Shown here piece by piece: positions 1,573 to 24,861 of a stretch of 25,237 nt of DNA. Origin of the DNA: a virus (taxonomy: Duplodnaviria > Caudoviricetes); the IMG/VR virus record IMGVR_UViG_3300017913_000835, positions 1 to 25,237 of that record; one strand, written 5' to 3'. Each line of letters opens with the position of its first letter. Within the stretch, counting starts at the first letter, position 1. The position numbers and the translations under genes are program-made. The notes under the pieces were generated by a model that was not told where the DNA came from, did not search any database, and worked only from the letters and a program-made list of their open reading frames with translations.

Positions 1573-2844
1573 ATGGCATCTCTTAATCTACAGAGAAATT
1601 CTGAAGTGTTCATGTCAACTATTGACTTGATTAATGGTGCGGCTGTAACTTCAATGACCCCAATGAATACTTGGAAACTTGAAGTTCTTGCTGGTTTTGC
1701 TGTTACATCATCATCCGCCACACAGGATATCACTTCACTCGAATCTGGTACTAATCCAGATCGTTCACAACAGCGTTTCAACACTGCTATTAACCCAGTA
1801 GATTGGAACTTCCAAGTCTACTTACGTCCTACAGATGTTAATACTGGTGCTACTTCTGGTGGTACAGGTGCAGGTACTAACGAGTCAGGTAACGTTAAAC
1901 CAACTGCTGATTGGTTCATGTGGCAGTCAATGGTTTCAAATACCAAAATCGCATCAGGTACTAACGAACAGTCTGTTTGGGCTGACGGAGGTAAGCTTGA
2001 GACAACTAATGTAGCTGCAGGAACTGGTTCACATTCAACACGTTCTAACTTCTCAACAGCTACTGAAAATCATATCTACTTTAAACTTGATAACGTTATT
2101 TATCAGGTATCAAACGCTACAGTTAACCAAGCTACAGTAGACGCAGGCATCGAAGAGATTGCTACAGTCACATGGGCCGGCTTTGGTACAACAATGAAAG
2201 AACTTACCGGTACACCTCGCGATAACGCTATTTCAGTGTTTGGTGGCGTTCTTAATGACGGCTCAACAGCTACTGCTAACTCAAACTCTGCTGCTATGTC
2301 AAAGACCATTGCATACCACCCATACGGTGAGATGAACGTAGCAGGAGCAATTGGCACCAACTCATTTATTAAGAATCGTTTGAGTGCTATTGAGTTCCAT
2401 CATCAAGCTTCTGCTGGCGCAGCTGATGAGAAGTTTACCTTCCCAGTTACAGCACTTAGCTTTGACTACAATAACAATATTACATACCTGACACCTGAAG
2501 AAATTTCAGCCCTGAACGAGCCAATCGGTCAGTTCACAGGTACTCGCGCAGTAACAGGTTCTGCTACTATGTATCTTCGTACTGGAGATCTTGAGTCAGC
2601 TGGCTTCTTGCGCAACATTTCTGAAGATTCACGTACATCTTCAGCACAGACTTCAAACGCTAACCTGATTATCGGTGGAACAACTGCTCCATATGTAGCA
2701 TTCCAGCTCGATGCAGTACAGTTTGAGTTCCCACAGATCGCTACAGACGACGTTATTTCAATGACTGTTAACTTTGTTGGTCAAGAACCAACAGCGTCAC
2801 GCGGTACTGGCGGTGAAGTTTCAATCTTTGCTAAAAAGTCATAA
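1573..2844 (+). CDS. Major tail tube protein (T5 pb6-like)
   Basis: Strong SD (aaggag, 1559-1564). N-terminal LNLQRNSEVFMST, FNTAINPVDWNFQVYLRP and NNITYLTPEE...PIGQFTGTRAVTG motifs resemble T5-like tube proteins. It sits between the terminator and the chaperones. Confidence 0.88.
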   Translation: MASLNLQRNSEVFMSTIDLINGAAVTSMTPMNTWKLEVLAGFAVTSSSATQDITSLESGTNPDRSQQRFNTAINPVDWNFQVYLRPTDVNTGATSGGTGAGTNESGNVKPTADWFMWQSMVSNTKIASGTNEQSVWADGGKLETTNVAAGTGSHSTRSNFSTATENHIYFKLDNVIYQVSNATVNQATVDAGIEEIATVTWAGFGTTMKELTGTPRDNAISVFGGVLNDGSTATANSNSAAMSKTIAYHPYGEMNVAGAIGTNSFIKNRLSAIEFHHQASAGAADEKFTFPVTALSFDYNNNITYLTPEEISALNEPIGQFTGTRAVTGSATMYLRTGDLESAGFLRNISEDSRTSSAQTSNANLIIGGTTAPYVAFQLDAVQFEFPQIATDDVISMTVNFVGQEPTASRGTGGEVSIFAKKS

Positions 2845-2851
2845 TATTTAA

Positions 2852-2972
2852 AATGTTTCTGAGGGGGAACATTATTTAACAACCAGAGAGTGTCCGTCAC
2901 TTGCGATTCAAGGTTCCCCCTCACCTACGAAGAGCAGATATGTGACGGACACTTACATTATGAGGGGAAACC
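2852..2972 (+). promoter_or_regulatory. Structured cis-regulatory RNA candidate (pseudoknot with anti-Shine-Dalgarno strand) between the tube gene and the chaperone gene
   Basis: tgagggggaac (2860-2870) is the exact reverse complement of gttccccctca (2913-2923). agtgtccgtcac (2889-2900) is the exact reverse complement of gtgacggacact (2942-2953). The two helices are interleaved. 2912-2923 also complements the RBS region tgaggggaaacc (2961-2972) at 11/12 positions. Confidence 0.7.
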
Positions 2973-3404
2973 ATGAGTAAAATTAAAAATATGATTGCGG
3001 AACAGTCGTCTATTTGGGTCGAATACCCAGATATTGAAGGCTTTGAAGTAAATCTTGCTTACCTAACACGCGAAGATCTTATGAAGATTCGTAACGCGTC
3101 ACTTACCTATAAGTTCAATAAACGCACTCGTCAGCGCGAAGAAGAAGTCGACAATGATCGGTTTCTTGAAAACTATGCTGAAAAAGCTATCATCTCTTGG
3201 AAAGGCCTTAAAGTAAAGCATATGCCTGCTTTGATGCCTGTTGACATTTCTGGAATGGACGCCAATGATGATATCGAGTATAGTAATGAAGATGCTATTG
3301 AATTGCTGAAAAACTCAACTGTATTTGATCAGTTTATTACAGATACAATGAATGATTTTGAACAGTTCTCAAAGAAAAAAGCTGAGACAGACGCAAAAAA
3401 CTAA
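2973..3404 (+). CDS. Tail assembly chaperone (lambda gpG-like)
   Basis: 143-aa acidic protein between the tube and tape measure genes, with SD gagggg. It ends in a slippery heptamer directly before its stop codon. Confidence 0.85.
   Translation: MSKIKNMIAEQSSIWVEYPDIEGFEVNLAYLTREDLMKIRNASLTYKFNKRTRQREEEVDNDRFLENYAEKAIISWKGLKVKHMPALMPVDISGMDANDDIEYSNEDAIELLKNSTVFDQFITDTMNDFEQFSKKKAETDAKN
3395..3401 (+). other. Programmed -1 ribosomal frameshift site A AAA AAC
   Basis: The gene ends gcA AAA AAC taa, an X XXY YYZ heptamer in the correct phase. The -1 frame is open from there (LRDYLQVSLHGGGISTEQYFTICEQMGVEP...) into ORF 3476..3769. Confidence 0.85.
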
Positions 3405-3769
3405 GAGACTACCTCCAGGTTTCGCTTCACGGCGGTGGAATATCTACTGAACAGTATTTTACTATATGTGAACAAATGGGGGTAGAACCAAAAGAAGAGG
3501 ACATACCAAAAGATCCTTCTACTTTTTCTCTTGAAGCACAACAAGCCTTAGTGCTTCTAAATGTATTACCCGATAACTGGGAAGGCATGAATGGGCTTTG
3601 GCTTGGTAAAGATTATAGTGGTTTGATGGACATTATGGATATTTATGATATATCTGAAAAGCGCGAAGTCTTTGATCTACTTAAAATTTGTGAAGAAGAG
3701 CTTGGAAAGTACTACTCTCAAAAGAGAAAAGAACAAGAACAACTCGCAAAAGCAAAGAGAGGAAAATAA
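3401..3769 (+). CDS. Tail assembly chaperone frameshift extension (gpT part of a gpGT-like fusion)
   Basis: The -1 frame relative to the upstream chaperone is open from the slippery site to the stop at 3767-3769. The listed ATG at 3476 has no clear SD. The YF.ICEQMG.EP and LPD.WEGM.G.WLGKD motifs resemble the T5-like second chaperone. Confidence 0.8.
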   Translation, partial: LRDYLQVSLHGGGISTEQYFTICEQMGVEPKEEDIPKDPSTFSLEAQQALVLLNVLPDNWEGMNGLWLGKDYSGLMDIMDIYDISEKREVFDLLKICEEELGKYYSQKRKEQEQLAKAKRGK

Positions 3770-6700
3770 TTGGCTAGTAAAATTCAACTGCTATTTGAAG
3801 CAAGGGGAGGCGCTAGAGCAGCTAAAGAACTTGATCAAGTTGGTAAGTCTACCGAACGAGTAGGTCGCGCTCAAACCCGTCTTGGTCAAGCTTCCGCATC
3901 TGCTGGTCGTCAATTCGCAGCGCAAGCTAACGGTCTGGGCGGTTTAGTTCAAGCTTATGCTGGAGCTGCTGCTAACGTTTTTGCTATCACTGCAGCTTTT
4001 ACAGCTTTATCAAGAGCTGCTGAATTTGAACAGGTTATTGCAGGTACTAATGCTTTAGCTTCTTCTATTGGTGCCAATGGTAGACAAATCATAGCATCTG
4101 TTAATGAAATAACTAAATCACAGCTTAATTTGCTTGAAACTGCTCAGACCGTGAATATCGGTTTAGCAGCTGGTTTTAACACTGAACAAATTAATCAACT
4201 CTCTGATGTTTCTCTAAGAGCTTCTAAGGCTCTTGGTAGATCTTTAACAGATGCATTCACTCGAGTATCTCGTGGTGCTGCAAAGCTAGAGCCCGAACTT
4301 CTTGACGAACTGGGTATTTTTACACGTATTGACCCTGCTGTTAGAGCCTATGCTGACTCTGTTGGTAGGTCTGTATCTTCTCTTACTAACTTTGAGCGTA
4401 GACAAGCTTTTGTAAATGCTGTTATTGAAGAAGGTCAACGTAAATTTAGAGACGTTGATACGAGTTCTAACTCTGCAGCAGTATCTCTTGAAAAGCTTTC
4501 CGCAACCGTCATTAACCTCGGACTTCAGTTTGGATCAGTGCTTGCTTCTTCTTTGGCTCCTCTTGCTGATTTCATCACTGATAATCTATCTAACTCTATT
4601 GCCCTATTCGGATTGCTGGCTAAACAAGTTGGCGGATTAGCCGCTACTGTTTTTGCAGCAGGCGTAAATTCTGCTGCCAACAGTCTATCTAATTTAGCTA
4701 GTACTGCTGCGACAGCGTTTAATAATATAAACCCTGCCTTTACTGAGGCTACTCGTAGAGCAGCTGCATATGCGGAGACATCAAAGCTTCTTAACTTTGG
4801 TAATCAAGCGCTAAAACAACAATCTGCTGAAGTTCTTAGATTGGTTGCTGCTCAACAGCTAAAAACTAAAGCAGATCTTGATAATGCAAGATCAACATTA
4901 ATTAACTATCGTGAAACTATTAAGCAAAATATTGAGTTAGGTAAGTATGCAGACAAAACTCTTCCAACAGCTAATGCACAAGTAACTTTACTTACACGCA
5001 ACATTAATAAGTTATCAGTAGCTATGAATGTGTCAAGCGGTGCGTCAAATCTTGCTTCGAGGGGTTTTGGGTTATTAAGTACAGGGATAAGCGCTGTTGG
5101 AGGTGTTTTAACCAGTACTATTACAAGACTTTTTACTCTTATCACTGTATTATCTTTAGCTCAATTAGCTATTGATGCTTTTTCTAAGGCCTTTGGTTTT
5201 GAAAGTGTCAACATTCTTGAATCTATTGTTAAACTTATTAAAGATTTGATTGACAGTTTTGGGGTTTTCAGCAAGTCGATTAAAGCTTTTAGCTCAGGTT
5301 TAAGAGAAGAAATGACTGCAGCTGCTGAAGCTGCAGGAGGACTTGCAGATGAGGTAGATAATAATGTCAACACAGCTTTGGAAAGTTTTACCAAGGTACT
5401 AAAACAAATAGATGATCAAAGAATTGAATATCCTTCTATAAAAGAAGCAGAAGCAAACAGGCAAACTATAGCCTTTCTCAATGAAGAAATTGAAAAACTA
5501 GCAGGCGACGGTAATAAAGCTGCGGCAGAGGCATTACGCGTTCTTGTAGATAGAATATTAGAATTGGGTAACAATAGCGTAGTAGCTGGTGTGCAATTTT
5601 CAAAACTTATTCTTCAGCTATCTAAACTTAGCGGAGTAGCCACGAAAGATGTATCAAGAATCGTTCAAGGTTTTGAGACACTTGGCGGCGCTATTGCTTT
5701 CACTACAGATGAGACTGGTTTGTTTATAGACAAGTTTCAAGTAGCAACTTTTGAAGACGGAGTTTTGAAATTTATACAAGGATTTGATCAAGTTTCTTCT
5801 ATTTTAACTCAATCTATAGATAAGGTTGCAGATTTTAGAGCACAATTTGCTGCAGGAGCACTTAATGCTGAAAGAGCTGCTCAGGCCGTGGGAGCGATCA
5901 ATAATACTATAGTTCAAGCAGAAACCGAATCTGCTAGATTGACCAACGAAATCAAAAGACTGAATGATCAAATTAAAACAGCAGAAGGAACTGAAAAAGC
6001 AAGACTCATTATTGTTCGACAAAATCTTGAGAGAGCACAAGAACTTCTTAATACTAAAATAGCAGAAGTAAGAATTGAACGTGAGTTAGCACAAGCACAA
6101 GCCTCAAAGCTAGCTAATGCCGAAGCTGAATTCAAAATTAGACAAAAAATATTTGGAAACGCTGGAGAAACTCTTTCAAGATCTGCTATTGGTGGTCTCG
6201 TATCTCCTGGAAGAGGCGTTGCACAATCAACTGACGAAGTGCAAACAAACAAGCTACTTAAATTACAAGAAGATTTGTTAACACTGAAGGAAAAAGAACG
6301 CAAGTTTAATCTAGAGAATCAATCATTGATAGCAGCTAGTGCTGTTATAAATAAACAAATAAAAGGACTTACTAAAGATCTATCAGAGTTTTCTCAAGAG
6401 CAGCTTTTGACTGATGGACAAGCTCGTAATGTAGCAGAACAAATAGCTGTAGCTAAACAGAAACAGAACGACATACAAGCAAGAATTGCAGCTAGAGACT
6501 CAGACGCTCTTGACGCACAACGAGGTATTTCACAAATTAATGACGCACTTTTATTAGAAAGACAAAAGTTTTTAGCGCAGGAGCAGAAAATTTTGAATGA
6601 GTTTGAAAAACAACTTAACGCTTCTAATGCTCAACTTGAGTCTGCAAAAAATAGTCTTAAGATAAATAGGCTTCAGAATGAGCAAAAAGTATTACAAGTT

Positions 6701-7912
6701 CTTAAACAACAAGAGTTAGCTTTGTTAAACCAAAAGAAATCTTTAGAAGAGCTATTTGGCACGTTTACCGATGCCAAAAATATTGAGTTTCTAAAAGATA
6801 AAGCGGAAATTGAACTAAGATTTGCAACGGAAGAAAATCAGAACAGAAAAGAATTAGCAAAAGCACAAAAAGAACAAACAATTGCACAAGCTAAGAGTGC
6901 TGAACTTAATAGAAGAGTACAAATAGCTTCTATTAGATCAAGGTCAAACGAGATTAAAAGTCAAGAACTAGTTTTTAATAACTTTTTAAAAAACTTAGAT
7001 GAGGTTCTTGAGCAAAGAATTAAAGAACTTAATCCTCAAGCTCAAATTAAGAGTGTAAGCGAAGATAGATTTGGCTCTGTCCTTCCTGGAGGTGGCAAGT
7101 TAGGTACAGAGCTACAAACCATAGTTGATCAGATAGAAAAAAATTCTAAAACTATCCTTGAAACTCAAGAAAAGGCTGCCCAGGATACTTTAGATACAGC
7201 TGTGAAGGTTGAGGACACTAAGCTAGATATTTTAAGAAAAGCTCAAGATGCTGAAATTAAAGCTGCAGAAATTGCTGGATCAACTAGATTTAAAGTATAC
7301 AAGTCTTTCGAAGAGGGCATAAATCAAACGCTAGCACCTGCCCTAGAAGGGGTGTTCCAATCTATTGCAGATGGTACATTTACTGTCAGAAATTTAAATG
7401 ACGAGTTGAACAACTTCTTTAGGTCACTAATAGAAAATATTCGTAAGAAACTGTTACAAGAGACCTTGATCGATCCTATCACTGAGGGAGTAACTCAGTT
7501 TGCTAAGGATTCATTCTTCTCACCAACTGGTAATGCTGGAGGTACCAGCGCGTTTTCAGGTATTGGTAACTTCTTTACAGGTTTATTTGGCGGTAAAGCT
7601 TCTGGCGGTTTAGTACATATGGCAGGTGGTGGACAAGTTCGTGACCGTGTACCAGCAATGCTTGAGCCAGGCGAATTTGTTATTCGCAGACCCATGGCTA
7701 AAGCTATCGGTGGTCCTGTTCTTAATTCGATGAATGCTACTGGTTCAATGCCTACAGGCGACGTTCAAGTTAATATCACAAACCAAGGCACACCACAAGA
7801 AGCAACAGCTTCTCAACCTAAATTTGATGGTGAGAAATTTGTTATCGATATTGTTACTAGAGACCTTAGAAATAATGGTCCTATCCGTAAGTCATTAAGA
7901 GGAGGATTATAA
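3770..7912 (+). CDS. Tape measure protein
   Basis: 1380 aa, Ala/Leu/Gln/Glu-rich and helical, directly after the chaperones. TTG start with SD agagga. The N-terminal GGLVQAYAGAAANVFAITAAF motif is T5 pb2-like. Hydrophobic segments lie near aa 250-300 and 430-480, followed by a long coiled-coil region and a C-terminal ASGG...DRVPAMLEPGEFV motif common in tape measure C-termini. Confidence 0.93.
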   Translation: MASKIQLLFEARGGARAAKELDQVGKSTERVGRAQTRLGQASASAGRQFAAQANGLGGLVQAYAGAAANVFAITAAFTALSRAAEFEQVIAGTNALASSIGANGRQIIASVNEITKSQLNLLETAQTVNIGLAAGFNTEQINQLSDVSLRASKALGRSLTDAFTRVSRGAAKLEPELLDELGIFTRIDPAVRAYADSVGRSVSSLTNFERRQAFVNAVIEEGQRKFRDVDTSSNSAAVSLEKLSATVINLGLQFGSVLASSLAPLADFITDNLSNSIALFGLLAKQVGGLAATVFAAGVNSAANSLSNLASTAATAFNNINPAFTEATRRAAAYAETSKLLNFGNQALKQQSAEVLRLVAAQQLKTKADLDNARSTLINYRETIKQNIELGKYADKTLPTANAQVTLLTRNINKLSVAMNVSSGASNLASRGFGLLSTGISAVGGVLTSTITRLFTLITVLSLAQLAIDAFSKAFGFESVNILESIVKLIKDLIDSFGVFSKSIKAFSSGLREEMTAAAEAAGGLADEVDNNVNTALESFTKVLKQIDDQRIEYPSIKEAEANRQTIAFLNEEIEKLAGDGNKAAAEALRVLVDRILELGNNSVVAGVQFSKLILQLSKLSGVATKDVSRIVQGFETLGGAIAFTTDETGLFIDKFQVATFEDGVLKFIQGFDQVSSILTQSIDKVADFRAQFAAGALNAERAAQAVGAINNTIVQAETESARLTNEIKRLNDQIKTAEGTEKARLIIVRQNLERAQELLNTKIAEVRIERELAQAQASKLANAEAEFKIRQKIFGNAGETLSRSAIGGLVSPGRGVAQSTDEVQTNKLLKLQEDLLTLKEKERKFNLENQSLIAASAVINKQIKGLTKDLSEFSQEQLLTDGQARNVAEQIAVAKQKQNDIQARIAARDSDALDAQRGISQINDALLLERQKFLAQEQKILNEFEKQLNASNAQLESAKNSLKINRLQNEQKVLQVLKQQELALLNQKKSLEELFGTFTDAKNIEFLKDKAEIELRFATEENQNRKELAKAQKEQTIAQAKSAELNRRVQIASIRSRSNEIKSQELVFNNFLKNLDEVLEQRIKELNPQAQIKSVSEDRFGSVLPGGGKLGTELQTIVDQIEKNSKTILETQEKAAQDTLDTAVKVEDTKLDILRKAQDAEIKAAEIAGSTRFKVYKSFEEGINQTLAPALEGVFQSIADGTFTVRNLNDELNNFFRSLIENIRKKLLQETLIDPITEGVTQFAKDSFFSPTGNAGGTSAFSGIGNFFTGLFGGKASGGLVHMAGGGQVRDRVPAMLEPGEFVIRRPMAKAIGGPVLNSMNATGSMPTGDVQVNITNQGTPQEATASQPKFDGEKFVIDIVTRDLRNNGPIRKSLRGGL

Positions 7913-9510: not shown

Positions 9511-11039
9511 TGACAGCAAGAAACTATGATACTATACTTACCGTAGCTAATGCAACAGGCTTTGAATCAGGTAATGTTCTAGTAGGTAACACTTCTGGAA
9601 CCGTTGGTGTTATAGCAAATGTTGATACAACCACTAACTTAATCAAAGTAAAGATTAATAATGTTCTTCAAGAATTTAGTTCAAGCGAAGCTGTACATTC
9701 TAATATTATAACTACCACTGGTACGGCTAATGGTGAACTAAACTCAAATACTGCCCTTCCTTTTCAGGCTAACGTGTTTAGCGGTAATACAACAACTGCT
9801 ATCACTACCATTTCTTCTATCGCCCCAAGCGCTTTTATAGCGGAGAAAAATGCTTTTACACAAAATCCTGTAGTGAGGCTATACTCTGTGTATTATCCAG
9901 GAGAGTGGTATCCTCCAAACGCAGCTGGCAATCCGACAGGACAAGGTGAAGGTAGAGCGTATCCTAATGATTTTCCCTTACGTTTTGCAGAAATACGTGG
10001 AGATTTGATATCTGATCTTCAATATAATGTTATTCACGATGGTGACACATACGTTCCATACCCAATCAACTCTTCTGCAATAGAACAGTCTAGTGATGGT
10101 AAAATCAATGAGATTACAGTTACTATGTTTAACTTTGATAACTTAATCTCAAGGATAGTAGAGGATCCTTTCTTAGTCGGTAACAATATTTCAAACTCTG
10201 TTCAAGCTACCGTAAATGGTGAACTAGTTCATGGCATTGACCCTAGAACAGTGCCTGGCACTACTAGTAATCCTGACGGTCTTAACTATGATGTTAATGT
10301 TGTCGGTAGGTATGGTAGATCAAACGCATCTTTCACTCGCGAAGAAACTATTTCAGTAGGCGGCGAATGGCAAGAACAGAAAATGGACACAAGAGACTTG
10401 TTAGGCGGTGTAGTTGAGATTAAAACCACTTTTGCTAATTTCTTAGACTTTTGGCCTGAATATAGCACTCTCACTTACTCTGGTGGTAACGTTATATCTG
10501 TTTATAACGCGCTTCCGTACAGAGTAGGTGATAATGTTGTTTCTAAGACAGGCACTCGTGAAGCAACTATTGAATCAATAGAGGAAAATAGACTGCTTTT
10601 CTTGTCTAATCCATTAGATTCAAATACAGCTATAGGCACTCCTATTTACATTGTTAATGACCAAAAAGACACGGAATCTTATGTAGAAGATAAGTTTAAG
10701 ATAGACCAACTTGAGTCTATGAATGACGCTACTGCTAGTTTTGGTCTTGTGTCTTGGTTACAATACTTTAAGATTGTAACACCTAAAAGAAAATATTACA
10801 AAAATACTTGTCAGTGGGTTTACAAAGGAGCTGAGTGTCAGTACCCTGGTCCAGGCGGTTTAGCCATACCAGGAACTAACTTAGTCTCTAATAATAATCC
10901 TATTGCTGCAAATAACGAGATTGCTGCTACAAATACTGGTGACGTTTGTGCTAAATCTCTACAAGCTTGTACCCTCCGAAATAATCAACAACATTTTGGA
11001 GGCTTCCCTGCAACGGGAAGAAGCATACCTCGTGAGTAA
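9510..11039 (+). CDS. Minor tail/tip protein L-like (Fe-S cluster binding)
   Basis: The C-terminal CQWVYKGAECQY...DVCAKSLQAC..R....FGGFP is the four-Cys signature of lambda gpL (nt ~10809-10970). It follows the gpM-like gene and is about twice the size of lambda gpL. Confidence 0.88.
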   Translation: MTARNYDTILTVANATGFESGNVLVGNTSGTVGVIANVDTTTNLIKVKINNVLQEFSSSEAVHSNIITTTGTANGELNSNTALPFQANVFSGNTTTAITTISSIAPSAFIAEKNAFTQNPVVRLYSVYYPGEWYPPNAAGNPTGQGEGRAYPNDFPLRFAEIRGDLISDLQYNVIHDGDTYVPYPINSSAIEQSSDGKINEITVTMFNFDNLISRIVEDPFLVGNNISNSVQATVNGELVHGIDPRTVPGTTSNPDGLNYDVNVVGRYGRSNASFTREETISVGGEWQEQKMDTRDLLGGVVEIKTTFANFLDFWPEYSTLTYSGGNVISVYNALPYRVGDNVVSKTGTREATIESIEENRLLFLSNPLDSNTAIGTPIYIVNDQKDTESYVEDKFKIDQLESMNDATASFGLVSWLQYFKIVTPKRKYYKNTCQWVYKGAECQYPGPGGLAIPGTNLVSNNNPIAANNEIAATNTGDVCAKSLQACTLRNNQQHFGGFPATGRSIPRE

Positions 11040-12207
11040 ATGTATTTTACCTTGGATACACCAATACGGAGAACTAGACGGTAAATACGGTCTTTGTTGT
11101 TTTACTATAAACAGCGGAATGCAGTATTTGTTTGGTCAAGGATTATCTCCTGCAGAAGCTTTTAACTCCCAAAATATGAAAGATACCAGGCTTGCCATGC
11201 TTCGTGGTGAGAAGGTAGATGCGTGTTCTGTTTGTTATGACTGGGAAAAGAACGGAGTCGAAAGTCATAGAAACCGTATGAATGATATGTATTCTAACTT
11301 ATCTTTTTTATATGATAAAACTAACCCAGACGGTTCTGTTAAAAATCCACCAATTTACTTAGATTTTAGATTTGGAAACCTATGTAATTTTACATGTCGT
11401 ATGTGCGGTGTGTATGCGTCGTCTAGTTGGGCTAGAGAAGCTAAACATCACGGAGAAGTTGGGTCTAGAGAATCTACTCATATAGATGCATGGACGGATA
11501 ATGATGACTTTTGGAGAGATTTAAGTACTTTTAAACAACATGTTAAGAGAGTACATTTCGCTGGTGGAGAACCTTTTGTGCAAGAAGGACATTATAAGTT
11601 TTTACAGTATATGATAGACCATGGACACACCGATTTATATTTAACCTACAATACTAATCTATCCTACAATGGATCATTCAAAGGATACGACATAAAAGAG
11701 ATGTGGAAACATTTTACAAAAGTAGAAGTATGGGCAAGCATTGAAGGATATAAAGAAAAGGCTGAATACGGAAGAAAAGGTTTAGAATGGGATTTATTCG
11801 TAAAAAATGCTGAGTTATTTTCTGACTATATTCAAAGTTATTCTATGGTAAGTAATATATATTCAATCACTAGTAATCTTGAACTTATTAAATGGGTAAA
11901 AAGTATGAATAAAGACTTTTTCATAACAAACTTAGTAAGTCCTGAAGAAATGTCTACTACTGTTTTCAGTAAAGAAGTGAAAGATATGATAATGAAAAAA
12001 TATAAACAAGGTCTTTTTGATCTGCAAGAGTCATTAACTGAGAGTGAACTTTCTAACATATTATCCACTCTTAAACATATGAACTCAAGAGATGATACAC
12101 ACAAGCAAAAAAGATTTAAACAAAAAACTATTAGATCTGATTTGTATAGAAATGAATCTTTTGAAGCGGTGTATCCAGAGTTGGCACAATGGTACATAAA
12201 TATCTAG
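11032..12207 (+). CDS. Radical SAM enzyme with N-terminal Cys-rich (twitch/SPASM-like) auxiliary cluster domain
   Basis: CxxxCxxC motif (YLDFRFGNLCNFTCRMC, nt 11383-11406), GGEP motif (FAGGEPF) and YNTN. N-terminal CILPWIH...DG...LCC...CSVCY. The likely start is GTG at 11032, overlapping the gpL stop, rather than 10903. Confidence 0.92.
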   Translation: MSKCILPWIHQYGELDGKYGLCCFTINSGMQYLFGQGLSPAEAFNSQNMKDTRLAMLRGEKVDACSVCYDWEKNGVESHRNRMNDMYSNLSFLYDKTNPDGSVKNPPIYLDFRFGNLCNFTCRMCGVYASSSWAREAKHHGEVGSRESTHIDAWTDNDDFWRDLSTFKQHVKRVHFAGGEPFVQEGHYKFLQYMIDHGHTDLYLTYNTNLSYNGSFKGYDIKEMWKHFTKVEVWASIEGYKEKAEYGRKGLEWDLFVKNAELFSDYIQSYSMVSNIYSITSNLELIKWVKSMNKDFFITNLVSPEEMSTTVFSKEVKDMIMKKYKQGLFDLQESLTESELSNILSTLKHMNSRDDTHKQKRFKQKTIRSDLYRNESFEAVYPELAQWYINI

Positions 12208-22327: not shown

Positions 22328-23875
22328 ATGCCTTTAACTCGGGTAACTACCAGCGCTATTGGTGCAAACGCCATTAGCGCAGATAAAATGCAAAACAGCT
22401 CTATTTCTACTAGGCATTTTCAACCTGGTACGATTACACTTGGGCTACTTGAGGCTAATGCTAACACAGTAGCAGTAGAGACACGAGTTAATGCTAATCT
22501 TGACGTTCTACAAGACAATGTTGATATCGTTTCTTCTAATGTATCAGCAGTTGAATCAAGACGTTTACAGAACACCACTACATTTACTACAAATATTAAC
22601 ACAGTCTCCTCAAATGTCGATACAGTATCTTCAAATACTACTGATAACCAAACAAATATTAATACCGTTTCTTCAAATGTTGATACCGTACAAGATAACG
22701 TGGCTACGTTATCAACAAACGTTACGGGTATTATTGATGGCACAACACAGTTTACTGACGATAAAATTTTTCAACAAAATGTAACAGTACAAGGTAACTT
22801 GATTGTTGTAGGTTCGCAAGTTGATCTTGGAGTCGGTACTGCTACTATTGACGATAACTTTATTGTAGTATCTGCTAATCTTACAGGAACCCCCGCTACT
22901 GATTCTGGTATTATTGTAAACCGTGGTTCAGAAGGTAACGTATTTATTGGTGATCATATCGCAGAAGACGGTATAGTATTTGCTTTATCTCAGTCTCCTC
23001 ACGATAACGCAACAATAGCTATCCAAGAATATCTAGATGTGCATGCCAATGCATTCCACGCAGAATCTGGTATGAATTTTAGCCGTGTACACTTTTCTCA
23101 TGTAGACGACGAATCTACTGGTATTTTGATTGATACTACTAATACACACATCAAGTTCATTGTAGGTGGGTCAGAACAAGCTAACCTTACAAGTGGGGGT
23201 AACTTACACTTAGCCCAAGGCTCTATTCACTCTGGTAACCTAAATGGAGGCAACCAGATTGACCTAGATGATGATAGTTTAGCTGATAGACAAAACTCAA
23301 TAGTAATTCGTTCTCTTCAGTCTGTTGGTATGTTCCTTGATTGGAATGATTCTGAAGGTGGTAACTTTTTTAATATTTATGATGCCGAAGATGATCCAAA
23401 CAACGTAACAAAAGATGACGGCTTATTCTCAGTTCGTGATACAGGTGACGTGTTTGTTGATCAATCTATTAATATTGGTACTACTGCAAACGTTAACGGA
23501 GTCGATCTAGTATCAAACGACTTTGTAACCTTTACTAGACTTAACGCAAACCTAAATGTAGTATCCTCTAATGTTGTTGGAGCAGAAACAAGACTAAATG
23601 CTAACCTTGATATAGTACAAGATAACGTAGCTGCTATAGCAGGAGGAGGAGTACTTCTTACCCCCTTCAATAATGTGAACACTGCAACAGGAACTTCAAA
23701 CGTCTTCTTTATAGGCCAAGACGTAGCAGCACACGCAAATATTACTACGGTATCTTTAGACGGTATAGTCCAACCTAATACAGAATTTGTTCCCAACTTT
23801 TCTAACGATACTATTCAATTTAAAGATGCTAGCATACCCTCTGGAACAATTGTAACAATAAACTCGTTGGCCTGA
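22328..23875 (+). CDS. Putative fibre/structural protein with Asn-Val heptad coiled-coil repeats
   Basis: SD aaggag. N-terminal MPLTRV...I...AIS.DK, heptad repeats (NLDVLQD NVDIVSS / NINTVSS NVDTVSS), a VTVQGNLIVVG...IDDNFI...DSGIIVNRGS segment seen in phage fibres, a second coiled-coil and a C-terminal beta module. Confidence 0.7.
   Translation: MPLTRVTTSAIGANAISADKMQNSSISTRHFQPGTITLGLLEANANTVAVETRVNANLDVLQDNVDIVSSNVSAVESRRLQNTTTFTTNINTVSSNVDTVSSNTTDNQTNINTVSSNVDTVQDNVATLSTNVTGIIDGTTQFTDDKIFQQNVTVQGNLIVVGSQVDLGVGTATIDDNFIVVSANLTGTPATDSGIIVNRGSEGNVFIGDHIAEDGIVFALSQSPHDNATIAIQEYLDVHANAFHAESGMNFSRVHFSHVDDESTGILIDTTNTHIKFIVGGSEQANLTSGGNLHLAQGSIHSGNLNGGNQIDLDDDSLADRQNSIVIRSLQSVGMFLDWNDSEGGNFFNIYDAEDDPNNVTKDDGLFSVRDTGDVFVDQSINIGTTANVNGVDLVSNDFVTFTRLNANLNVVSSNVVGAETRLNANLDIVQDNVAAIAGGGVLLTPFNNVNTATGTSNVFFIGQDVAAHANITTVSLDGIVQPNTEFVPNFSNDTIQFKDASIPSGTIVTINSLA
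22478..22722 (+). repeat. Intragenic heptad repeat array including a degenerate 63-bp (21-aa) duplication
   Basis: aatattaacacagtctcctcaaatgtcgatacagta (22592-22627) and aatattaataccgtttcttcaaatgttgataccgta (22655-22690) both encode NINTVSSNVDTV and differ only at synonymous sites. Confidence 0.8.
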
Positions 23876-24861
23876 TGAAAAAATATAGACAACTAACTAC
23901 AGAACTTACATTTAGATGTAATGCTAAATGCCCAGCCTGTCATCGCTGGAAAGATCTGCGTATAAATCTCAATGATCCTAAATATACTATTACTCTTGAT
24001 AACTTCAAAAGATTGTTTAACAAAGAACTTTTAAATGGTTTAGAATGGCTAGTTATCAATGGTAACTTTGGCGATTCTGTAATGAACAAACAGTTTCGTG
24101 ACATTATTTCTTATGTTAAAGAACAAGACACTAGGATTTTAATACATACCAATGGCGGAGTTCATGGTCACGATTATTGGACTGACGTAGGTAATATACT
24201 TACCAAGGATGATATTATAAACTTCGATCTAGACGGTTTACAAGATACTCACCACATATATAGAGTTAATACTCAGTTCGATAAAGTTTTTTCTAATGCT
24301 CAGTCTGTGATAGCTACTAATAGACCTCAAGTGCATTGGAAATATATAGTTTTTGAACACAATAAGCATCAAGTTGAAACTGCAAGACAGATAGCTATTG
24401 ATGCAGGTTTTACTACTTTTTCTACAGTGAAAACTTCTAGAGATATTTTTGCACCTAAAAGCGGCTCATTTGTCCATGCTAAAAAAACTGATGCCTATTT
24501 AAATGCTGAAAAAAAGATTAGATGCGTGTGGGGAGATTGGGGTAAGTGGTATATATCTCCTGAAGGTCTGGTTTTTAGATGTTGTTGGACAGGAGGTCAC
24601 TATTATGATGAAACAAATGAAAAATTTTATTATCCTCCTAAATTTGAGCGTATGTTTAACGGTTTTGAAGTTCCCATCCAAAAAATAATAAGTTATGATT
24701 ATTGGAGTAAGTTACAACAATATTTACAAGGATATGATAGATCTTTTAAACTATGTAAGTCTCAATGCGGTAAAATAGTATCCTCTATAGAAAAAACAGA
24801 AGATAATCTTAAAACAGGCGAAAAAACATATTTTGATGCTTACAATCAGAATGGAAACTAA
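23875..24861 (+). CDS. Radical SAM enzyme with C-terminal SPASM/twitch-like domain
   Basis: ELTFRCNAKCPAC (CxxxCxxC, nt 23917-23940), NGNFGD, IHTNGG and FDLDGL..THHIYR. C-terminal C.W....WYISPEG.VFRCCW...CKSQC. The start overlaps the upstream stop (TGATG). Confidence 0.92.
   Translation: MKKYRQLTTELTFRCNAKCPACHRWKDLRINLNDPKYTITLDNFKRLFNKELLNGLEWLVINGNFGDSVMNKQFRDIISYVKEQDTRILIHTNGGVHGHDYWTDVGNILTKDDIINFDLDGLQDTHHIYRVNTQFDKVFSNAQSVIATNRPQVHWKYIVFEHNKHQVETARQIAIDAGFTTFSTVKTSRDIFAPKSGSFVHAKKTDAYLNAEKKIRCVWGDWGKWYISPEGLVFRCCWTGGHYYDETNEKFYYPPKFERMFNGFEVPIQKIISYDYWSKLQQYLQGYDRSFKLCKSQCGKIVSSIEKTEDNLKTGEKTYFDAYNQNGN

Follow-up and report, generated by a model that had tools for sequence, protein, structure and literature searches.

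Intrinsic terminators with partial read-through are found after abundant structural genes of phages, for example Tφ of phage T7. In trp-type attenuators, the choice lies between alternative helices designated 1:2, 2:3, and 3:4. EAR and the put RNA of phage HK022 share a different anatomy, a structured cis RNA in or ahead of a long operon that is able to act on RNA polymerase. Short complementary loops can also act between molecules, as in the packaging RNA of phi29, which forms rings by intermolecular loop pairing. For long-tailed phages, what is known of how a single operon yields tube, chaperone, and tape-measure proteins in set proportions concerns mainly the chaperone frameshift.

Pseudoknots that govern translation are represented by ColIb-P9 repZ and pMU720 repA, in which a stable stem masks the ribosome-binding site (RBS) and the GUG start until these are exposed by the pseudoknot, with which an antisense RNA is in competition (PMC4705826). 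The EAR RNA of B. subtilis is named in PMC8632103. Fremin et al. list candidate RNAs located 25 bp or less upstream of genes of the Phage_TAC_4, 5, 7, 10, and 12 families (PMC10690425, supplementary file 5).

Here, we describe an RNA encoded among the tail genes of a T5-like phage known only from uncultured material. The DNA analysed, referred to as the window, is a stretch of 25,237 nt, and the element lies in the gap between its major tail (tube) gene and its tail assembly chaperone (TAC) gene. The gap RNA is an uncatalogued cis RNA without an Rfam match, and its carriers are uncultured aquatic T5-like phages. Judged from the sequence, it is a conserved cis RNA of two hairpins, P1 and P2, with complementary loops. 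We propose, with a probability of about one half, that the element is a leaky, pseudoknot-tuned transcription terminator between the tube and chaperone genes.

Genomic setting and fold of the gap RNA

The features of the locus are collected in Table 1. The tube gene has an ordinary RBS of the AAGGAG type, and the best matches of its product among cultured phages are major tail proteins of Demerecviridae (29% identity). The chaperone had no match in one Pfam search and matched PF27119 in another. Of 51 relatives, 50 have the slippery heptamer where the chaperone gene ends, and the gene with its -1 frame appears to encode the usual short and long chaperone pair, the long form being predicted. 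The tape-measure gene is the first low-copy gene 3' of the element. With the -1 frame included in the ORF lists, the tube-chaperone gap of 128 bases is the sole gap of more than 100 nt between complete genes of the window, as an earlier note on this DNA had pointed out. Vibrio phage Ceto, the sole cultured member of Demerecviridae examined, is without a comparable gap 3' of its tube gene. Two other ORFs of the tail module (10903-12207 and 23875-24861) carry cysteine motifs, from which we presume that they resemble radical-SAM enzymes.

Table 1. Coordinates of the gap RNA and its neighbouring genes in the window
Feature	Position	Strand	Description
Tail terminator gene	1105-1560
Major tail (tube) gene	1573-2844	+	423 aa; stop codon 2842-2844; PHROG 3575, E 1.9e-48
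Hairpin P1	2852-2873	+	variable AU-rich stem; GAGG(GG) displayed in loop
Strand A	2860-2870	+	near-invariant core GAGGGG at 2861-2866
Linker	2874-2887	+	AU-rich, unpaired
Long hairpin P2	2888-2954	+	~67 nt; base stem B:B' = 2888-2900 with 2942-2954
P2 inner parts	bulge 2938-2941; stem 2901-2904/2934-2937; upper stem 2907-2914/2923-2931; tip 2915-2922
Strand A'	2913-2923	+	near-invariant core CCCCUC at 2917-2922, in P2 tip
U-rich tail after P2	2953-2960	+	4 of 8 T in the window (weak)
Chaperone ribosome-binding region	2961-2972	+	copy of A; GAGGGG at 2962-2967
Tail assembly chaperone (TAC) gene	2973-3404	+	143 aa; PHROG 313, E 3.1e-15
Slippery site A AAA AAC (3395-3401) and open -1 frame	3395-3769	+	PHROG 3914
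Tape-measure gene	3770-7912	+	PHROG 3779, E 1.1e-34

The pairings that the earlier note had drawn were all recovered. A and A' form 11 Watson-Crick pairs; B (2889-2900) and B' (2942-2953) pair at 12 of 12 positions; the chaperone ribosome-binding region matches 2912-2923 at 11 of 12; and P1 has nine pairs, including two G-U pairs, its first base being the eighth after the tube stop. The A-B-A'-B' order of the two helices also stands. What had been missed is that B:B' is the base of one continuous P2 hairpin, in which the G-U pair 2888:2954 adds to the 12 pairs, and that relatives carry a U tract. P2 is built, in order, of 13 bp, the 4-nt bulge, 4 bp, a purine loop, the upper stem, and the 8-nt tip. 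The note further held that A could be trapped in P1; the hairpin exists, but the GAGG core of A is the P1 loop itself and is not trapped. Since the core of A lies in the P1 loop and A' in the P2 tip, A:A' is a loop-loop pairing.

Strand A resembles a Shine-Dalgarno (SD) sequence but is not followed by a start codon in the window, and A' is complementary to both A and the chaperone RBS. On the plus strand of the window, GAGGGG and CCCCTC occur only three times each. The minimum free energy (MFE) of the gap region is -43.1 kcal/mol (z = -4.83), and none of 200 shuffled sequences was equally stable.

Conservation of stems and loops in relatives

Relatives were gathered via the TAC protein, plus one DNA-pattern search. 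Ceto and loci without a tube match (7 in one set and 16 of 80 in another, most of which begin too near a contig end) were left out. The 159 distinct gaps retained, 151 of them via the protein alone, are 119-159 nt long, and the lowest TAC identity to the window is 54%. Representatives were chosen at 88% (44 or 53 sequences), 75% (19), and 68% (9) identity; the pattern search alone supplied 5 of the 53 and 2 of the 19.

The earlier note had staked its structure on conservation and covariation in relatives, and both were found. GAGGG is followed by CCCTC in all 151 protein-selected gaps, and the longer forms GAGGGG and CCCCTC occur in 147. At the P2 base, with alignment made from sequence only, two-sided changes were seen at 11 of 12 predicted pairs and, when the structure was specified (44 representatives), at 10 of 11 pairs, with 99% of cells paired. 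Over the entire structure 95% of cells pair, against 44-54% with slid partners. The cells of the base stem include 29 G-U and no A-C combinations, which points to a single sense strand and disfavours a DNA-level reading such as a cruciform or a protein site. In permutation tests, which leave part of the relatedness between sequences in place, the P1 arms pair at -5.5 kcal/mol with arms of their own lineage and at -1.4 kcal/mol with those of others (19 representatives; 0 of 5000 permutations as good), and for the P2 upper stem, too, arms of the same lineage are far better partners than those of other lineages (0 of 5000).

The loops behave differently from the stems. In the alignment of 44 representatives, none of the seven pairs of the A:A' core shows a two-sided change; the core never varies, and covariation therefore cannot prove A:A'. 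The flanks of A and A' do fit each other inside a lineage (with 53 and with 19 representatives, 0 of 5000 permutations were as good; with 9, 21 of 5000). The pairing proposed in the earlier note is supported, but not its length of 11 bp, which is specific to the lineage and ranges from 6 to 14 bp across relatives around an invariant core of just 5-6 bp. At the edge of the helix, C-G replaces U-A in one lineage, and the edge pair is mismatched in 6 of 53 representatives. CCCUC is unpaired in the nested MFE structure of 52 of the 53.

No Rfam 15 covariance model matched the window at the gathering threshold, and none matched the element in the loci of 10 relatives, in agreement with the earlier note, which recognised no described RNA family. 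One chance Rfam match (E 0.46) falls inside the tube gene, off the element. When a model of the element was run against 59 sources, the three strong scores were the window and two loci (L143 and L147) that are taken to be tube-chaperone loci. The six weak matches in that search belong to one unrelated family of nested hairpins with GAGGGG and CCCCUCACC arms (L085, L092, L096, L146, L153, and L168). In L153 this hairpin, at 701-760, lies between two small genes, just 5' of an RBS, and has no tube or chaperone match nearby. The element is also present on two contigs of ~5 kb (L418 and L419) in bins of unrelated bacterial groups; these contigs are probably mis-binned phage DNA and are not evidence of a host. 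L418 has a G-U pair within the loop-loop core.

Conservation of this kind could also be expected of a protein-binding operator, in which the kissed fold binds RNA polymerase or a phage protein (tube, chaperone, or a late antiterminator) and thereby serves feedback or processive antitermination of the tail operon of more than 20 kb, much as put or EAR RNA would. Such an operator would fit the invariant loops and the fixed positions of a conserved C-G pair, a purine-rich internal loop, and an A-rich bulge, as well as the place of the element, which is followed by many genes in succession without another large gap. On the other side, in five of five genomes or fragments searched (three complete), the element is present as a single copy with no second one, and the U tract described below argues for a stop signal and not an antiterminator; we regard an operator as quite unlikely. 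Two weak model matches that arose in the search for copies were rejected, one being a hairpin of a capsid gene and the other resembling chance sequence.

Proposed termination and read-through, and the chaperone RBS

Among the 53 representatives, 43 have at least five T in the eight bases directly after P2, whereas 5 have as many just before it, and 15% are expected; the count assigned the terminal T residues of the stem to the tail, which favours this result. The tract falls short of five T in the remaining 10 of 53, and the window has 4 of 8. The 13-bp covarying base stem corresponds to the GC-rich stem, of at least 7 pairs, of an intrinsic terminator. A short terminator hairpin, with a loop of 3-8 nt, is absent from the window gap and occurs in 2 of 159 relatives.

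A sister clade of T5-like phages (L481-L560) served as the outgroup, with 75 of 80 loci analysed and 69 distinct gaps. Its gene order is shared and its tube protein is about 24-38% identical. Its gap contains a sigma-70-type promoter with a score of at least 10/12 in 68 of 69 cases, with a short terminator-like hairpin before the promoter in 31 of 69 and after it in 32 of 69, and never the GAGGG...CCCTC pair. In the window clade, a promoter of that score is found in 7 of 159 gaps versus 4.9 per base-shuffled set, which is the chance level; the minus strand of the window gap, from which a competing antisense RNA would have to start, has a single promoter match, of 9/12 only, where 0.8 are expected. 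Both clades thus carry signals at the gap, which marks the position as a regulatory boundary in both. Two sister clades would then have arrived at two solutions, a promoter, often behind a terminator, and a promoterless kissing-loop RNA. Barring a promoter of another type, the downstream genes of the window clade probably depend on read-through.

In about half of the sister-clade gaps, a hairpin lies 3' of the promoter, within the 5' leader of the chaperone gene. These leader hairpins often have GGGGUGA and UCACCCC arms (SD-like and anti-SD-like, respectively) and a U-rich 3' side. In two relatives of the window (L334 and L337), promoter-like hexamer pairs with a spacing of 17 nt were seen by eye 5' of the terminator-tube-chaperone genes; the window has no comparable gap upstream of its tail terminator gene. 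Among metatranscriptome contigs (four runs of one study, sharing 5-6% of words), some extend across the gap and several start at 2961-2968; such contigs show neither RNA ends nor levels.

The leaky-terminator model, which we prefer, would work as follows. Many transcripts would end after the tube gene, and a set fraction would continue into the chaperone, tape-measure, and baseplate genes. As a result, the leak would set the amount of chaperone and tape-measure protein per tube protein. During transcription, A' is predicted to pair first with A, closing a loop around B. We infer that this closed loop would slow the zipping of the 13-bp base stem, the other strand of which is tied to the polymerase; topological slowing of P2 closure by A:A' would let the polymerase pass the U tract, giving partial read-through, and transcripts whose P2 closes in time would stop there. 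The odds of read-through may be set by folding kinetics, by a ribosome on A, or by a protein. As a second layer, the loop-loop contact on read-through RNA could hold the CCCCUC tip off the chaperone RBS.

The order of folding was followed with nested, equilibrium programs, beyond which pseudoknots and kinetics lie. For growing prefixes of the window, the MFE structure is P1, then an A:A' hairpin enclosing B, and then P1 with P2; A:A' is the most stable fold while the 3' end of the nascent RNA lies between about 2924 and 2942. The A:A' intermediate is seen in 16-18 of 19 representatives. It yields to P2 only 2-10 nt before the 3' end of P2 in 41 of 53 representatives and is absent in 5. Thus, A:A' precedes P2 in nested nascent folding, yet it leaves B and B' free, and for this reason the element is not a textbook antiterminator.

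It may be asked whether the loops are needed at all. The element could be an ordinary terminator or processing site, in which the loop contact does no more than make the 3' end of the tube mRNA rigid, and so protect it from exonucleases, and nothing is switched. The near-constant span of P2 (59-75 nt among relatives) would agree with this, and so would the plain GC-rich 3' hairpins of five of five capsid genes examined and the plain terminators in many sister-clade gaps, which suggest that these phages usually have a hairpin 3' of their abundant structural genes. However, a plain hairpin would then suffice, and it would be unexplained why the loops stay fixed while every stem changes and why the chaperone RBS copies A; we consider this reading improbable. 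The capsid hairpins, of 11-14 bp, lie 3' of the presumed protease-capsid gene in L333-L337, have GGAGG and CCUCC in the stem of four of the five, and are followed by U tracts that are mostly weak. In these relatives, a single ORF of 728-1028 aa, identified by eye, appears to encode both the putative prohead protease and the putative major capsid protein.

A released RNA has also been considered, the complementary loops of which would pair between molecules to give rings, like those of the phi29 packaging RNA, that would serve tail assembly structurally. The two invariant loops, which are complementary and sit at the ends of a rod whose length hardly varies, would be suited to it. A gap without a promoter or an evident 5' processing signal, a P1 that abuts the tube stop codon, and an RBS copy of A that suggests a cis role all speak against it, and we think it very improbable.

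The earlier note had read the element as a purely translational switch, in which A' pairs either with A, leaving the RBS free, or with the RBS, blocking it, and chaperone synthesis is turned on when a ribosome that has reached the end of the tube gene melts P1. Its premise that the chaperone RBS is a near-copy of A holds in most relatives: among distinct RBS regions, GAGGGG is present in 48 of the 81 that precede the chaperone gene and absent from all 50 tube, 61 tail-terminator, and 73 tape-measure regions, and AAGGAG is found in 49 of the 50 tube regions. GAGGG is present in the chaperone RBS of 123 of 159 gaps of the window clade versus 0 of 69 in the sister clade, where AAGGA is the rule (64 of 69). 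This enrichment favours selection for likeness to A, and one clade retains GAGGGG even beside a canonical AAGGAG. The RBS and A of the window yield an identical 7-bp duplex with A' (-11.9 kcal/mol), P1 begins within 10 nt of the tube stop in 45 of 53 representatives, and a switch would account for the invariant core.

The blocked state and its trigger fared less well. At no level of dereplication does the RBS pair better with its own A' than with others (2775, 2959, and 2120 of 5000 permutations as good, the second for the 19 representatives), and in 47 of 53 the RBS duplex with A' is weaker than that of A. One clade (L107, L173/L249, and L441; tree of 52/53 rows) has an AAGG-type RBS and still keeps both loops. 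The consensus fold of the relatives contains no conserved stem over the chaperone RBS. The footprint of a terminating ribosome past the stop is taken as 10 nt; masking these bases moves the mean equilibrium probability of A:A' only from 0.70 to 0.75, raising it by more than 0.1 in 16 of 53 and lowering it in 9 of 53, and that of the window is 1.0 either way. The RBS is located 7-23 nt from the base of a rod of ~67 nt, the tip of which would reach it with difficulty if P2 stays folded, and the U tract is left unexplained. A purely translational switch is, in our estimate, doubtful.

The invariance of the A:A' core points to a third partner that the leaky-terminator model alone does not name. 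This partner might be the ribosome itself, acting as a ligand. The SD decoy in the P1 loop would trap a post-termination ribosome via its 16S tail, and this ribosome, parked at the base of P2, would decide on termination and on the freeing of the RBS or handover to it. The core of A begins 22-36 nt 5' of the P2 base across relatives, about one ribosome footprint, which fits a parked ribosome. We hold this idea to be rather unlikely. If it were true, one six-base address in three copies would replace the promoter of the sister phages, and it would be explained why the loops are invariant even where the RBS of a clade cannot pair with them.

Comparison with known systems

Literature searches found no description of the kissing-loop motif. 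The candidates of Fremin et al. are alike in that a structured RNA lies upstream of a tail assembly chaperone gene, but their chaperone families differ from that of the window (PMC10690425). The motif was not found in the text and supplement listings of that work that were searched, and it may be among the 8,495 unnamed candidates there. The element is an uncatalogued RNA motif with clear covariation, present across a large clade of uncultured phages, and marks a second control point, one gene before the frameshift.

ColIb-P9 repZ resembles the element in that a loop pairs with a distant short GC-rich strand near an upstream stop codon and a downstream RBS (PMC4705826); it differs in that the element is without a conserved stem masking the RBS, has loops as both partners, and carries a U tract. 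From EAR and put RNA, the element is set apart by the lack of a sequence or Rfam match to them and by its ending in a U tract.

With terminators of the T7 Tφ type, the element shares a GC-rich stem followed, in most relatives, by a U tract, a high-copy gene 5', and low-copy genes 3' on the same strand. In contrast to these, its hairpin is ~67 nt long with internal loops, and the tip pairs with the loop of an upstream hairpin and is complementary to the next RBS. With trp-type attenuators, the likeness is one of layout: P1, A:A', and P2 map to helices 1:2, 2:3, and 3:4 beside a stop codon. However, the element is without a leader peptide or sensing codons, the upstream ORF being the 423-aa tube gene; its '2:3' helix occupies the tip of the terminator and not the base; and simulated masking by a ribosome had little effect on it. 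By analogy, its nearest counterparts in action would appear to be leaky terminators between cistrons and attenuators of the trp type, and it has long-range loop pairing in common with ColIb-P9 repZ, but it lacks defining features of each of these.
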